26,737 nt of DNA from Chloroflexota bacterium (GTDB lineage: Bacteria; Chloroflexota; Dehalococcoidia; Lucifugimonadales; Australimonadaceae), in NCBI GenBank assembly GCA_028875085.1, contig JAPPFU010000083.1, positions 1 to 26,737 of the forward strand, written 5' to 3'. The notes below the pieces were generated by a model that was given only the letters and a program-made list of their open reading frames with translations, was not told where the DNA came from and did not search any database. Position numbers and translations under genes: made by a program. Shown here piece by piece: positions 10,652 through 23,379 of the stretch. The first letter of the stretch is position 1, and each line of letters begins with the position of its first letter.

Positions 10652-10680
10652 GTAGGGACAGGTTTCAAACCTGTCCCTAC
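10652..10680. repeat. GTAG-type REP palindrome (GTAGGGACAGGTTT-C-AAACCTGTCCCTAC)
   Basis: Perfect 14-bp inverted repeat that begins with GTAG on both strands; intergenic. Confidence 0.8.
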
Positions 10681-17849: not shown

Positions 17850-19262
17850 CTACTCCCACTCCCTTACGTCTACGAACCGCCCCGCCACCGCCGCCGCCGC
17901 CGCCATCGCGGGACTGACCAGGTGGGTGCGCCCGCCCTTGCCTTGGCGCCCCTCGAAGTTGCGGTTCGAAGTGGAGGCGCAGCGCTCGCCCGGCTGCAGC
18001 ACGTCGGGGTTCATCCCCAGGCACATGGAGCAGCCCGCCTCCCGCCAGTCGAACCCCGCCTCGCGGAAGACCGCGTCGAGGCCCTCGGCCTCGGCGAGCA
18101 GCTTCGTCTGCGTGGAGCCGGGCACCACCATCGCGTAGACGTCGGGATGCACGCGTCGCCCCTTGGCGACGGCGGCGGCGGCGCGCAGGTCTTCGAGGCG
18201 CGAGTTGGTGCACGAGCCGATGAACACGCGGTCGAGCGCGATGCCCGTGATGGGCGTCCGCGCCTCGAGCCCCATGTACTCCAGCGCCCGCGACGCCGCG
18301 TCGCGGTCTTGCTGCTCCGCGAAGTCGGACGGCGACGGCACGGCGTCCGTAACGGGCACGGCCATGCCGGGGTTGGTGCCCCACGTTACGTAGGGCGCCA
18401 TCTCCGCCGCGTCGATGATCAGCACGCTGTCGTACTCCGCGTCCGGGTCGCTCGGCAGTTGGCGCCAGCGTTCGACCGCCGCGTCCCACTCGTCGCCTTG
18501 CGGCGCGTGGGGGCGGCCTTTCAGGTAGGCGAAGGTGGTTTCGTCGGGCGCGACCATCCCCACGCGCGCGCCCGCCTCAATGGACATGTTGCAGAGCGTC
18601 ATGCGCCCCTCCATCGAGAGGGAGCGGATCGCCTCGCCCGTGTACTCCACGGCGTAGCCCTGCGCCCCGTCCACGCCGATGCGCGCGATGACGCCGAGGA
18701 TGAGGTCTTTGGCGGACACGCCCGTCGGCAGCGCGCCCTCCACCCGTATCTCCATCGTCTTCAGCGGCGACTGCGACAGACACTGCGTCGCCAGCACGTG
18801 CTCCACCTGCGAGGTGCCGATGGGCATGGCGATGGCGCCGAACGCGCCGTGCGTGGAGGTGTGGCTGTCGCCGCACACCACGATCATCCCCGGCTGCGTC
18901 CGCCCCTGCTCCGGCGCGATGACGTGGACGATGCCCTGGTTGGGCGAGTACATGTCGTAGTACTCGATGTCGAACTCCGCCGTGTTCCGCGCCAGCGCGT
19001 CCAACTGCGCCGCCGACACCGCGTCCTCCAGCACCACGTTCCCGCCCGAGCGGTCGTCGGTCGGCACGTTGTGGTCGGCCACGGCGATGGTGAGGTCGGT
19101 GCGGCGTACCTTGCGGTTGTTCAGGCGCAGGCCGTCGAACGCCTGGGGCGAGGTGACTTCGTGGACGAGGTGGAGGTCGACGTAGAGGGTCGCGGGCTGG
19201 CCCGGCTCCTGCCGCACCACGTGGGCGTCCCAAATCTTCTGGAACATCGTTCTCGGCGCCAT
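17850..19262 (-). CDS. leuC: 3-isopropylmalate dehydratase large subunit
   Basis: [54 protein letters not shown] and [12 protein letters not shown]. Confidence 0.97.
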
Positions 19263-19351
19263 CGAGCGGTTGCCTCCTGCGGGTGAAGCGGCCTGCGGGC
19301 CGCAGCGAGCGCCTAGGATAGCCGCTGCGCGGCGGCGGCGCTAGGCGGGGA

Positions 19352-19375
19352 GGGCGACCAGCCGGTTGCCCCTAC
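19352..19375 (-). repeat. Second GTAG-type REP-like hairpin (GTAG-GGGCAACC-GGCT-GGTCGCCC)
   Basis: Plus-strand stem GGGCGACC/GGTTGCCC (8 bp, one G.T) followed by CTAC. The TAG of GTAG is the stop codon of the 380-aa ORF. Confidence 0.6.
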
Positions 19376-20514
19376 GGAGAGGGCGGTAGGGCGCGGATGC
19401 AGTACACACCGGGCTCGGTGGGGATGTCGGAGACCGTCGCCTTCTCCATCGGATGCCAAGCCGACCAGGTGAGGCCATCTATGGCCCCATCTTGCTTGGG
19501 GAACTGCTTGTTGCCCCTCACGAACTCCCTGTTGTCGGAGCGCACGAACCCGGGTAGGCGGCCATAGGCGGCATGGTGCGCCCGGAGAAGCGCTGCCTCA
19601 CGCGCTTCACGAGTGTCTGTCTCTGCCCAGCAGACCTCCAACTGCCATCCGCATTCGATGACTGCCTTCTCAGCCCAAGCGAGGAGGCATTTCCCCTCGA
19701 AGGGTTTACCCTCGGTGTGCTTGACCGCGTGGTCTATCCTTCCGGATAGACGATTGTGTAGGTTGACTCCCTCTCCAATGTAGACCAACTGCCAGGCCGC
19801 CTCACGGGCGAGCCGCGCCCGCTCTCGCCGAACCTGGCGCAGCCAGTCATGGTCGGACTCATGGCCGTAAATGATAGGAATTCCGTCCTCGGTGTGGGTA
19901 GGCCTCTTCCCTTCTCGCTCCCGAAGGAGTTTCTTCCGAAATTCTTCCGCAACGGGACGAAGAAGCTGCCGAATCTCGTCCTTCCAATCCTCGATGGACG
20001 AAGGAGCCTTGGGCTGTGCCGGTGAGACGCTCGCCACGCGGTTGGCATCGCGGCGGATGTTCACCCAACGCTCTTCGCCGCCGAGCGTCATGATAGGGAT
20101 GGCCTCGCACACCGCTGCGATGAGGAAGACGCCGGGCGCCGCCGGGATGTTCGGCAGGTTGCTCTTGTGCATTGCAAGCAGGCCCGACCAGTTCAACGGG
20201 CCGACCTCTCCTTTGACCGTTACGCTGACTTTGTTGCCGGGGCTTCCCTTGAAGGACGGCTTGTAGCCGTGGCGCGCTTCGTGCGCCTCGACCAACGCCG
20301 CCTTGTGGTCGGCTGCGCTCTGGGCGCTCGGAAGCTGCGCCCACATCACCACGCCGTGCCAGCCGTCCGGGTCCTTCGACAGCGTCTTCTCCGCCGGGGA
20401 ACGGTAGCGCTCCGGGTCGGCGATGCGCCGCGCGATGGCCGCCCGCAGGCCTCCGGCTCCGGCTGCGCGGCCGATGTGCACCGCCTCCTCTTCCACGCTC
20501 GCCACGATTGTCAA
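19372..20514 (-). CDS. Hypothetical protein with two internal repeats carrying GIY-YIG nuclease-like motifs
   Basis: 380-aa ORF with a consensus promoter and AAGGAGG upstream; visibly more A/T-rich than the leu genes. Repeat 1: VHIG13-15 ... GNK ... LNWS ... IPAAPGVF. Repeat 2: VYIG245-247 ... NRL ... E306AALL ... YGRLP ... GNK ... LTWS ... IPTEPGVY. Exact start uncertain (TTG). Confidence 0.72.
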   Translation of the reverse strand: MTIVASVEEEAVHIGRAAGAGGLRAAIARRIADPERYRSPAEKTLSKDPDGWHGVVMWAQLPSAQSAADHKAALVEAHEARHGYKPSFKGSPGNKVSVTVKGEVGPLNWSGLLAMHKSNLPNIPAAPGVFLIAAVCEAIPIMTLGGEERWVNIRRDANRVASVSPAQPKAPSSIEDWKDEIRQLLRPVAEEFRKKLLREREGKRPTHTEDGIPIIYGHESDHDWLRQVRRERARLAREAAWQLVYIGEGVNLHNRLSGRIDHAVKHTEGKPFEGKCLLAWAEKAVIECGWQLEVCWAETDTREAREAALLRAHHAAYGRLPGFVRSDNREFVRGNKQFPKQDGAIDGLTWSAWHPMEKATVSDIPTEPGVYCIRALPPSP

Positions 20515-20548
20515 ACGTTCGATGATGCGCCTCCTTATACCGCAGAAT

Positions 20549-20676
20549 TAGCAGCGAATTCGTGGATGAGACGCTGGTTTGCCTTACGGAATGTCCCGTG
20601 CGGAACTAGCGCTCAAATGCGGCGATTATCGCCGTAATCAGCGCTGTTTCTAGCGTCTCGAAACGAGGGAATGCTA
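20549..20676 (+). ncRNA. Candidate structured RNA (long rod ending in a three-way junction); family unknown, strand inferred
   Basis: Hand-folded helices: 20549-53/20672-76, 20559-63/20663-67, 20568-77/20650-59 (10 bp), 20585-89/20596-600, 20607-13/20640-46 and 20618-25/20629-36. Five G.U pairs on + become A.C mismatches on -. Confidence 0.45.
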
Positions 20677-20681
20677 CGCTT

Positions 20682-20710
20682 ATTATACGGGATTCGCCCG
20701 CATTTGTCAA
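20682..20710 (-). promoter_or_regulatory. Perfect consensus sigma70 promoter pointing at the 380-aa ORF
   Basis: TTGACA (20710-20705), 17-nt spacer, TATAAT (20687-20682) on the minus strand. Confidence 0.85.
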
Positions 20711-20749
20711 GCCGCGCCCGTAAATGACTCCCGCATAGCATGCAGCGTC

Positions 20750-20762
20750 GTAGGGACAGGTT
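20750..20762 (+). repeat. Half copy of the GTAG REP at 10652
   Basis: GTAGGGACAGGTT is identical to 10652-10664; the second arm is missing. Confidence 0.62.
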
Positions 20763-20776
20763 GCCTCTTACTCGGG

Positions 20777-22336
<1,560 letters not shown>

Positions 22337-22383
22337 GATGGTTCCCCGTTCGTTCCGTCCGGTGAGCGCCGCAGCGCCCGCGC

Positions 22384-23379
22384 CTAGTGCTGCTTCAAGA
22401 AGGACATCATCTCGCGTAACTGGGCGCCGACCTCTTCGATCTGGTGCCCCGCGTCCTGCTCGCGTAAGCGCTTGAAGCGGTGGCCGCCTTCGTGGTTCTC
22501 GGCGATCCACTCGCGGGCGAACGTGCCGTCCTGTATCTGCGCGAGCACCTGCTTCATCGCCGCGCGCACGTGGTCGTCGACGATGACGGGGCCGCGGGTG
22601 TAGTCGCCGAACTCGGCGGTGTCGCTCACCGAGTAGCGCATGTACTTGAGGCCGCCCTCGTACATCAGGTCGACGATGAGCTTGAGTTCGTGCAGCACCT
22701 CGAAGTAGGCGATCTCCGGCTGGTAGCCCGCCTCGACGAGCGTCTCGAACCCTGCCTTGACCAGCGCCGCCGTCCCGCCGCAGAGCACCGACTGCTCGCC
22801 GAACAGGTCGGTCTCCGTCTCCTCTTTGAAGGTGGTCTGCACGATGCCGGCGCGCATGCTGCCGACGCCCGCGCCGTAGGCGAGCGCGTTGGGCAGCGCC
22901 TCGCCCGACGCGTCCTGGTGGATGGCGACGAGCGCGGGCACGCCGGAACCTTGGGTGAACACCTCGCGCATGCGATGCCCCGGCGCCTTGGGCGCGATCA
23001 TCGACACGTCGACGTCGGCGGGCGGCGTTATCTCCTTGAAGTGGATGTTGAACCCGTGGGCGAACATCAGCGTCTTGGACGAGTCGAGGTGCGGCTCGAT
23101 GGCGCTCTCGTACAGCCCGCGCTGGACGGTGTCCGGAACCAGCACCATGATGACGTCGGACGCCTTGGCGACCTCTTCGGGCAGGGCGACGGACAGGCCC
23201 GCCGCCTCGGCGCGCGCGCGGCTCGACGAGCCCGCGTGCAGGCCGACGACCACGTCGACGCCGTTGTCGCGCAGGTTGAGCGCGTGGGCGTGGCCCTGGG
23301 AGCCGTAGCCCATAACGCCGATGCGCTTGCCCTCCAAGCGCGAGGGGTCCGCGTCCTTCTCGTAGTAGACCGTTGCCAT
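22384..23379 (-). CDS. ilvC: Ketol-acid reductoisomerase
   Basis: [49 protein letters not shown] and [10 protein letters not shown]. Confidence 0.97.

Follow-up and report, generated by a model that had tools for sequence, protein, structure and literature searches.

A putative two-part, circularly permuted GIY-YIG nuclease cassette inserted in the ilv-leu operon of a sponge-associated Chloroflexota bacterium

In a sponge-associated Chloroflexota bacterium, the leuA and leuC genes of the ilv-leu operon are parted by about 1.5 kb of DNA with a gene of its own, which raises the question of what this interval is and what it might do there. The window analysed here is contig C189 (26,737 nucleotides) of the metagenome-assembled genome (MAG) G000, which measures 1.49 Mb and is 77% complete. 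The minus strand carries ilvB-ilvN-ilvC-leuA (20777-22510), followed by an open reading frame (ORF; 19372-20514), leuC (17850-19262), leuD and leuB. From the leuA stop codon to the ORF there are, in this order, half a hairpin of the repetitive extragenic palindromic (REP) type (20750-20762), a promoter, a leader of about 150 nt and the Shine-Dalgarno (SD) sequence AAGGAGG (20536-20530). An earlier, sequence-only reading of this DNA had listed a promoter, a folded element, an ORF, REP sequences and a 9-bp repeat between leuA and leuC, and all of these features are present. The GC content of the interval, referred to here as the cassette, is 0.56-0.62 vs. about 0.70 outside it, and the cassette is found as a single copy in G000. 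Logan contigs of the source run, a sponge metagenome, agree with the window with zero differences, one of them spanning the linker between the two domains of the ORF; this agreement represents the same reads passed through another assembler. Among the public runs searched, the stretch occurred in no RNA run; two joints in a second run were left out of account, since their sides are short or they derive from repeats or from other organisms.

The reading favoured here, at a probability of roughly 45%, is that the cassette forms a translationally throttled accessory nuclease module of the addiction, defence or selfish kind, composed of a dead and a live part that are both permuted GIY-YIG domains. 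The cassette is an insertion. When relatives were inspected for a direct connection of leuA to leuC, it was found that the 3' end of leuA lies at most 1.5 kb upstream of leuC in 26 of 30 loci, with a gap below about 450 bp in 23 of these. The same-genus genome G001, whose full-length leuC product is 95% identical in amino acids, lacks the cassette there and has in its place a REP-rich, unrelated spacer of some 370 bp. The cassette stands upstream of leuC in the window and in two metagenome contigs, L001 (from ENA) and L044, and the examined loci of the other relatives do not have it there. It had been proposed to be self-contained, and the combination of its own promoter, leader and ORF at one site in three close genomes, together with its absence from G001, agrees with that proposal; conservation of the ORF between leuA and leuC across the lineage, which would have argued otherwise, was not seen, the three close loci being the extent of it.

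Fold and strand order of the encoded domain

The ORF encodes 380 amino acids and is matched twice by the hidden Markov model (HMM) of its family, at residues 10-148 (E 5e-42) and 244-390 (E 9e-52), as numbered on the stop-to-stop frame. The domain unit has about 150 amino acids and most relatives are stand-alone proteins of that size; in the ORF, two units are connected by a linker of about 100 amino acids. The N-domain comprises aa 1-136 (20107-20514, minus strand), the linker aa 137-234 (19813-20106) and the C-domain aa 235-380 (19375-19812). The linker is an extension also seen at the C-terminus of relatives of the N-domain type; it contains the conserved stretch H-E-S-D-H-D-W-L-R-Q-V-R-R-E-R and has no Pfam match. 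Stand-alone members have an N-terminus of the form '..LTIAESV.EELVYIG', which is followed by 'LEVSWAET..SA..[EK]AALI..Y...GRLPGF' and 'GN', and all of them end in 'W-S-x-W-x-P-M....IP..PGVYRIRA-PP'.

The family is rare. It is represented by 46 cluster representatives among 1.84 billion and matched in 3 of 40 other relatives searched, while a word search of 5.8 billion gave two matches, one of them the window's own protein. A metagenome scan with a narrower family alignment confirmed zero loci, and the named carriers of the protein family are MAGs of Chloroflexota/Dehalococcoidia. In Pfam, the ORF has a single sub-threshold match, to DUF7508 (PF24348), in which its last ~20 residues ('..IP..PGVY') correspond to profile positions 6-25; the match scores 16.6 bits vs. 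a gathering score of 26 and involves the strand motif alone. No paper mentioning DUF7508 was found in a literature search.

Four independent kinds of evidence point to the GIY-YIG superfamily for the domain unit. In a profile search of the PDB, the family profile matched T4 EndoII (E 0.03) through 'ELVYIG..NLR.R'. Among 41 family members, 5 matched PF01541 and 11 matched DUF7508, all below threshold, and weak matches to GIY_YIG_2 and DUF123 were observed too. An AlphaFold2 model of the C-domain, calculated with the 41-sequence alignment, had a predicted local distance difference test score of 92; the model of the whole ORF from a single sequence scored 38 and was of no use. A VIA-align scan over 48,161 chains ranked the catalytic domain of I-TevI first (Z 5.0, 76 aa, root-mean-square deviation 2.7), with EndoII (Z 4.0), the N-terminal domain of UvrC (3.4) and the defence nuclease PD-T4-3 (2.9) among the structural top 9, and Foldseek searches by shape against the PDB, AFDB clusters and the ESM Atlas gave noise only. 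The language-model neighbours of the family are GIY-YIG and Eco29kI clusters. The ORF had been described as double GIY-YIG-like from its sequence, a description that the two HMM matches and the profile, structural and language-model evidence support.

The structural alignment with I-TevI starts at residue 11 of that enzyme and leaves out its N-terminal GIY strand, which we take to lie before residue 11. Since I-TevI was aligned from this residue onward, a permutation was tested directly. A canonical GIY-YIG profile was built from 22 UvrC and YhbQ-like domains of relatives and compared with the family by HHalign. In the native order, the comparison gave a probability of 43% (P 2.5e-4, 56 columns); when the last 24 residues were moved ahead of 'LVYIG', this increased to 90.7% (P 1.3e-6, 80 columns). 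In addition, the C-terminal 'P..PGVY' aligned separately to the canonical N-terminal GIY strand. The strand order is reversed with respect to the canonical one: 'VYIG' occupies aa 244-247, ahead of 'PGVY' at aa 368-371, and the GIY motif is not found some 10 residues before YIG. The rise in the HHalign probability on permutation points to a circular permutation with the order YIG...R...E...N...GIY, and these sequence comparisons support the view that the family is a circularly permuted GIY-YIG family with the GIY strand at the C-terminus. A literature search found no paper describing a circularly permuted GIY-YIG domain.

With known members of the superfamily (I-TevI, 1ln0; EndoII, 2wsh; UvrC-N, 1ycz; Eco29kI; PD-T4-3, 9u75), the family appears to share the beta-alpha-alpha-beta-alpha core, the order and residue types of YIG..R..E..N and a Tyr-bearing 'PGVY' strand. 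It differs in the C-terminal position of the GIY strand, in an extra segment of about 45 amino acids (a hairpin and W-S-x-W) that precedes it, in scores of the ORF below every Pfam GIY-YIG threshold and in the occurrence of the domain as dead/live pairs or fusions. If the assignment is true, the family would be a new circularly permuted branch of the GIY-YIG nuclease superfamily.

Pairing of degenerate and complete copies

The residues equated by HHalign with the catalytic Arg, Glu and Asn are all present in 15 of the 41 members and all missing from another 15. The C-domain of the window has the complete set Y-R-E-N-Y (Y245-R255-E306-N335-Y371), whereas the N-domain reads H-A-K-N-F and is degenerate, the equivalents of Arg and Glu having been lost. 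In a tree of the family, the N-domain falls in a clade, termed A, with P0004, P0013, P0017, P0039 and the copy of genome G007, and the C-domain in a clade, termed B, with P0006 and the second gene of L044. Since the two domains belong to distinct old clades, they do not represent a recent duplication.

Other loci carry A and B as separate genes. In L044, an A gene (206 aa) and a B gene (139 aa, with an SD sequence of its own) are adjacent; here the stretch corresponding to the linker is shorter and ends in a stop codon, an SD sequence and ATG, which makes two genes of it. L049, a distant contig of lower GC content, contains A, then a hydrophobic 67-aa ORF (958-1161), then B at 37% identity, with a promoter of the form TTGACA...TGnTATAAT upstream. 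For this 67-aa ORF, which has no counterpart in the window, two membrane helices were predicted by eye. The order A then B is kept in L044 and L049, and the two parts are fused in the window and in L001. As A and B are separate adjacent genes elsewhere and belong to distinct clades, the ORF of the window can be regarded as the fused form of an old two-component module. A live and a dead copy are also combined in genome G036 (L047, 6937-11417), where P0010 and a 151-aa protein (identical to P0018) each follow a gene with RCC1 repeats. These RCC1-repeat genes encode about 530 amino acids, and genes of corresponding size are found on the P0010 contig.

In P0012 and P0023, a degenerate copy is combined in one chain with an OGG-like domain of the glycosylase type (PF21790, below threshold), and the gene downstream of P0036 is OGG-like as well; these fusions and this neighbour hint that DNA is the substrate. 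A similar C-terminal extension, for which Pfam gives no match, is present in P0019. Compared with L044, the ratio dN/dS is 0.28 for A and 0.25 for B vs. 0.046 for leuC, and the values for A and B indicate purifying selection. Prediction of a complex between the N-domain and the C-domain gave a score of 0.00, which is evidence neither way.

On the basis of these comparisons, it may tentatively be proposed that the A (dead) and B (live) pair is an undescribed toxin/immunity or anti-phage system of Chloroflexota in which a dead paralogue gates a nuclease, here fused, placed behind an SD-sequestering leader and possibly started at an ATC codon; so specific a proposal is doubtful. Should it be true, the recurring pairing of dead and live paralogues might be a novel gating mechanism for nucleases.

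Promoter, leader and history of the cassette

The promoter had been called perfect, and the sigma-70-type sequence TTGACA-17 nt-TATAAT at 20710-20682 of the minus strand indeed attains a consensus score of 12/12. Its spacer holds a small inverted repeat (CGGG..CCCG). Promoter-like sites number 3 in the region vs. 0.2 expected. The promoter is identical in L001 (29/29 nt) and has three changes in L044 (TACAAT), and the exact pattern was not found in species-representative genomes.

The promoter is directly followed by the 5' leader (20524-20681, minus strand), which has about 150 nt from a predicted start site and forms a multi-helix junction according to folding and the three-locus alignment. 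A multi-helix element had been noted upstream of the ORF, and over 158 nt (20524-20681) the leader folds at -54.5 kcal/mol with z = -2.5. In the closing helix, an anti-SD in the 5' pyrimidine tract (20660-20666) pairs with the SD side (20527-20533), and the central junction comes next to it. RNAalifold over the window, L001 and L044 gave 46 pairs, 8 of them with compensatory change, vs. 4.6 +/- 1.5 in shuffles, of which 13 of 500 reached 8; with slid alignments as controls, the number dropped to 1-3. The support from covariation is modest, as the three sequences are related to one another. Folding of the antisense strand is about equally good, and its alifold energy is slightly better; the count of G.U pairs on the structure derived from the sense strand (20 vs. 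8) favours sense, and the consensus promoter directly upstream of the leader argues for the sense strand as well.

A covariance model of the leader (R1) matched the window, L001 and L044 only. The leader was not found with this model in the 40 relatives nor at the other family loci examined, so that the proposed structure upstream of homologs is not a property of the family; in the distant A and B operon of L049, which is among the loci without it, the untranslated region measures 40 nt. Rfam gave no match in the region at E <= 1 and none in the whole window at gathering scores, T-boxes and riboswitches included. The restriction of the leader to three near-identical loci argues for a cis regulator rather than a conserved RNA partner, and the pairing of the closing helix with the SD sequence fits cis translational control. 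Most simply, the leader would be a lineage-specific cis leader that acts as a translational throttle. Structures that sequester the ribosome-binding site (RBS) have been documented for free-standing homing endonuclease genes in intergenic regions (PMC2988022).

The SD sequence (20530-20536, minus strand) is read directly from the sequence. The annotated start codon, TTG (20512-20514), lies 15 nt 3' of it and aligns with the ATG of P0004. An in-frame ATC (20521-20523), 6 nt 3' of the SD sequence, is kept in the window, L001 and L044. Conserved E/G-R codons come next, among them a synonymous CGT/CGA change, and the resulting N-terminus '(M)ERLTI..' is similar to the 'MARLTI..' of the family. This ATC may serve as a non-canonical start ahead of the TTG. 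Either start would be weak.

The history of the cassette was followed through its carriers. In L001, it has the same architecture, with at least 5 indels in the ORF; as ilvC of L001 also has one frameshift, some of these indels may be sequencing errors. This ilvC (L001, 3075-4068) is split over two frames, through either indel errors of the assembly or a broken gene. In L044, a glyoxalase gene takes the place of leuA on the upstream side. Over 825 nt of leuC, identity is 0.928 for L044-G001, 0.895 for G000-L044 and 0.882 for G000-G001. Cassette-less G001 is thus nested among the carriers, which means that either G001 lost the cassette or the cassette moved. Compared with L044, dS is 0.56 for the A part and 0.48 for leuC, and the closeness of the two values favours vertical descent and loss. 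The best-supported account is that the cassette has occupied an operon hotspot since the ancestor of the genus and was repeatedly lost or decayed. G001 has a lone B-type gene with one in-frame TGA (L046, 6190-6699; G001:C4:63309-63698) that lies 18 kb from the leu genes, flanked by genes for a transporter of the major facilitator superfamily and a Na+/H+ exchanger.

The same junction holds other cargo in sister genera. A MazE/AbrB-type antitoxin and a PIN (VapC-like) toxin are found between leuA and leuC in G022 (L039, 488-1482) and G030 (L038, 2906-3858), and a MazE-like gene is all that was seen there in G007 (L035, 3060-3605). In G035 (L080, 192-2277 and 4112-4631), three membrane-stress genes of the LiaF/PspC type separate leuA from leuC, and a small DUF2283 gene and an unassigned neighbour separate ilvC from leuA. 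Operon junctions seem to be permissive for cargo in this order of bacteria, and the VapBC-like and LiaF/PspC genes at the same junction mark it as a hotspot. If the favoured reading holds, small selfish modules land at internal junctions of an essential amino-acid operon in these uncultured Chloroflexota of sponges, and the consensus promoters that they bring along can change how the operon is transcribed.

Candidate roles and borders of the cassette

According to the favoured reading, the cassette would be an accessory element housed in an intergenic, REP-rich hotspot within the ilv-leu operon. Its SD sequence would be sequestered by the 5' pyrimidine tract of the leader, which, together with a weak start at TTG or ATC, would keep translation low. 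The B domain would act as a nuclease, with DNA as the likeliest substrate, and the dead A domain, including its conserved extension, would be an obligatory partner that targets or restrains B. The module would persist as a selfish element of the addiction or defence type, like the VapBC pairs in the same slot, and its promoter probably also reads into leuCDB. From the sequences compared here we infer nuclease activity, interplay of A with B and a role in addiction or defence. With type II toxin-antitoxin (TA) systems of the VapBC kind, the cassette shares the format of a small, self-promoted two-part module with a nuclease-type second part, as well as the leuA-leuC junction; it differs in that its first part is a dead paralogue and not a DNA-binding antitoxin fold, and in the lack of a PADLOC or TA match. 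Of the earlier proposal of an undescribed selfish or defence element, the self-contained, nuclease-like accessory module is retained, and the RNA partnership and the transposon-like borders are not.

Several observations weigh against the favoured reading. PF01541 does not detect the ORF of the window, and the structural Z scores do not exceed 5.0, which is below the tool's mark of 8 and in a range that is called unspecific. The B gene of L044 has lost Tyr, Glu and Asn and is still under purifying selection, so that the function may not need catalysis. The fusion of antitoxin-like and toxin-like parts in one chain is unusual, fused TA proteins being exemplified by EzeT and CapRel. The choice of strand for the leader depends on three sequences, for which the G.U count and the alifold energy disagree. 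No relatives of the family were found in the phage and plasmid collections searched; PADLOC and PHROG gave no match for the ORF, NCBIfam gave nothing relevant, and no TA family matched. At the loci examined, family members sit among metabolic genes and not in defence islands.

Among the other explanations, a free-standing homing endonuclease gene that performs intronless homing, cutting the cassette-less leuA-leuC allele so that repair copies the cassette into it, in the manner of the seg genes of T4, is the likeliest, and it is still improbable. The GIY-YIG fold, an intergenic slot between conserved genes that is filled or empty among close relatives, the nesting of G001 among the carriers by leuC identity, and the decayed copies expected from a homing cycle all agree with it. 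T4-like segA-G likewise are intergenic GIY-YIG genes of patchy presence, with their own promoter and an RBS hidden in RNA (PMC2988022). Unlike them, however, the cassette is located on a bacterial chromosome and not in a phage, contains a dead domain paired with a live one and lacks an appended DNA-binding module detectable by Pfam. Its dS follows that of leuC as expected from vertical descent, and it is single-copy, with one shared site among the three carriers; the family members of other genomes occupy unrelated sites, and the phage and plasmid collections searched held no relatives. It is less probable again that the cassette is domesticated operon control, its promoter and leader being kept as an internal start for leuCDB and the ORF being a passenger on its way out. 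The promoter is unchanged in L001 despite several frameshifts in the ORF, the leader is well kept too, no terminator separates the ORF from leuC, and in L044, with its glyoxalase gene upstream, leuC may depend on this promoter. Against this, the ORF is intact in the window and under purifying selection vs. L044, the leader pairs with the SD sequence of the ORF and not with that of leuC, and it contains no leader peptide in addition to lacking an Rfam match; moreover, G001 and most relatives manage without the cassette.

The odds are longer for a housekeeping-like nuclease of DNA repair or damage processing in which the permuted pair works with base-excision enzymes. UvrC uses a GIY-YIG domain and provides a precedent, to which the OGG-like fusions and the OGG-like neighbour described above can be added; however, these links occur in other clades and not in the A-B pair of the window, the family is very rare and patchy, its copies decay repeatedly, and the GC content of the cassette is below that of the host. 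To the same degree unlikely is a protein that binds DNA or RNA without catalysis and is built on a degenerate GIY-YIG scaffold. Charged or catalytic residues kept in at least 90% of the family do not exist, half of the members lack R/E/N, and the B gene of L044 without Y/E/N has a dN/dS of 0.25, but the all-or-none co-variation of R/E/N speaks for an active site being maintained in one class, and the C-domain of the window has the full set. An RNA-guided or RNA-neutralised nuclease module, whether similar to HEARO/OMEGA or to type I/III TA systems, is very improbable. Like HEARO/OMEGA (IscB or TnpB with omega RNA), the cassette combines a nuclease gene with a structured RNA directly upstream, here with modest covariation and an antisense strand that folds comparably. 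It differs from these systems in its nuclease fold, its protein being unrelated to IscB/TnpB, in an RNA that is not conserved with the family, and in the lack of transposon ends, an IS200/605-type context and multiple copies. The RNA-guided reading can be regarded as largely refuted for the cassette, and the idea that the RNA guides, regulates as a partner or neutralises the nuclease is not upheld by a leader that pairs with its own SD sequence and occurs in three near-identical loci.

The borders of the cassette had been suggested to carry REP sequences at both ends, and this was found to be correct: a half hairpin at the 5' end and a REP-like stretch at the 3' end are both repeated genome-wide. 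The 5' element (20750-20762, minus strand) consists of the right arm only (GTAGGGACAGGTTTSAAACCTGTCCCTAC); in L001 and L044, the full hairpin occupies this position. Perfect copies of the 29-nt REP hairpin number 19 in G000 and 0 in the control; its family, GTAGGGACAGGTTT[C/G]AAACCTGTCCCTAC, is found in the window at 10652-10680 and on 18 other contigs, with many half or one-mismatch copies. The 3' element is a REP-like palindrome that overlaps the ORF stop (19337-19393) and recurs at 5 places on 4 other contigs (C71, C204, C254 and C18). A terminator was not found between the ORF and leuC, and as no T-run follows the palindrome, read-through into leuC is likely. Mobilisation of the cassette by REP sequences and a Y1 (RAYT) transposase was considered and rejected: the cassette is single-copy, no match to PF01797 was found in the 77%-complete MAG, and the REP sequences are spread genome-wide.

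The 9-bp direct repeat GGTTGCCTC reported at the borders is real, with copies at 19268-19276 and 20759-20767, but its interpretation as a target-site duplication was rejected. The first copy reads GAGGCAACC on the minus strand and forms the ribosome-binding region of leuC, and four bases of the second belong to the REP arm. Neither L001 nor L044 has the repeat, and when the two border spacers are shuffled, a 9-mer common to both arises in 4% of cases. Next to the first copy, a stretch of about 70 nt upstream of leuC (window 19277-19340), which includes the hairpin GCGGCC-CGCA-GGCCGC, is kept in the window, L001, L044 and G001. It thus occurs in the three carriers and in a genome that lacks the cassette, and may be a regulatory or RBS structure specific to leuC.

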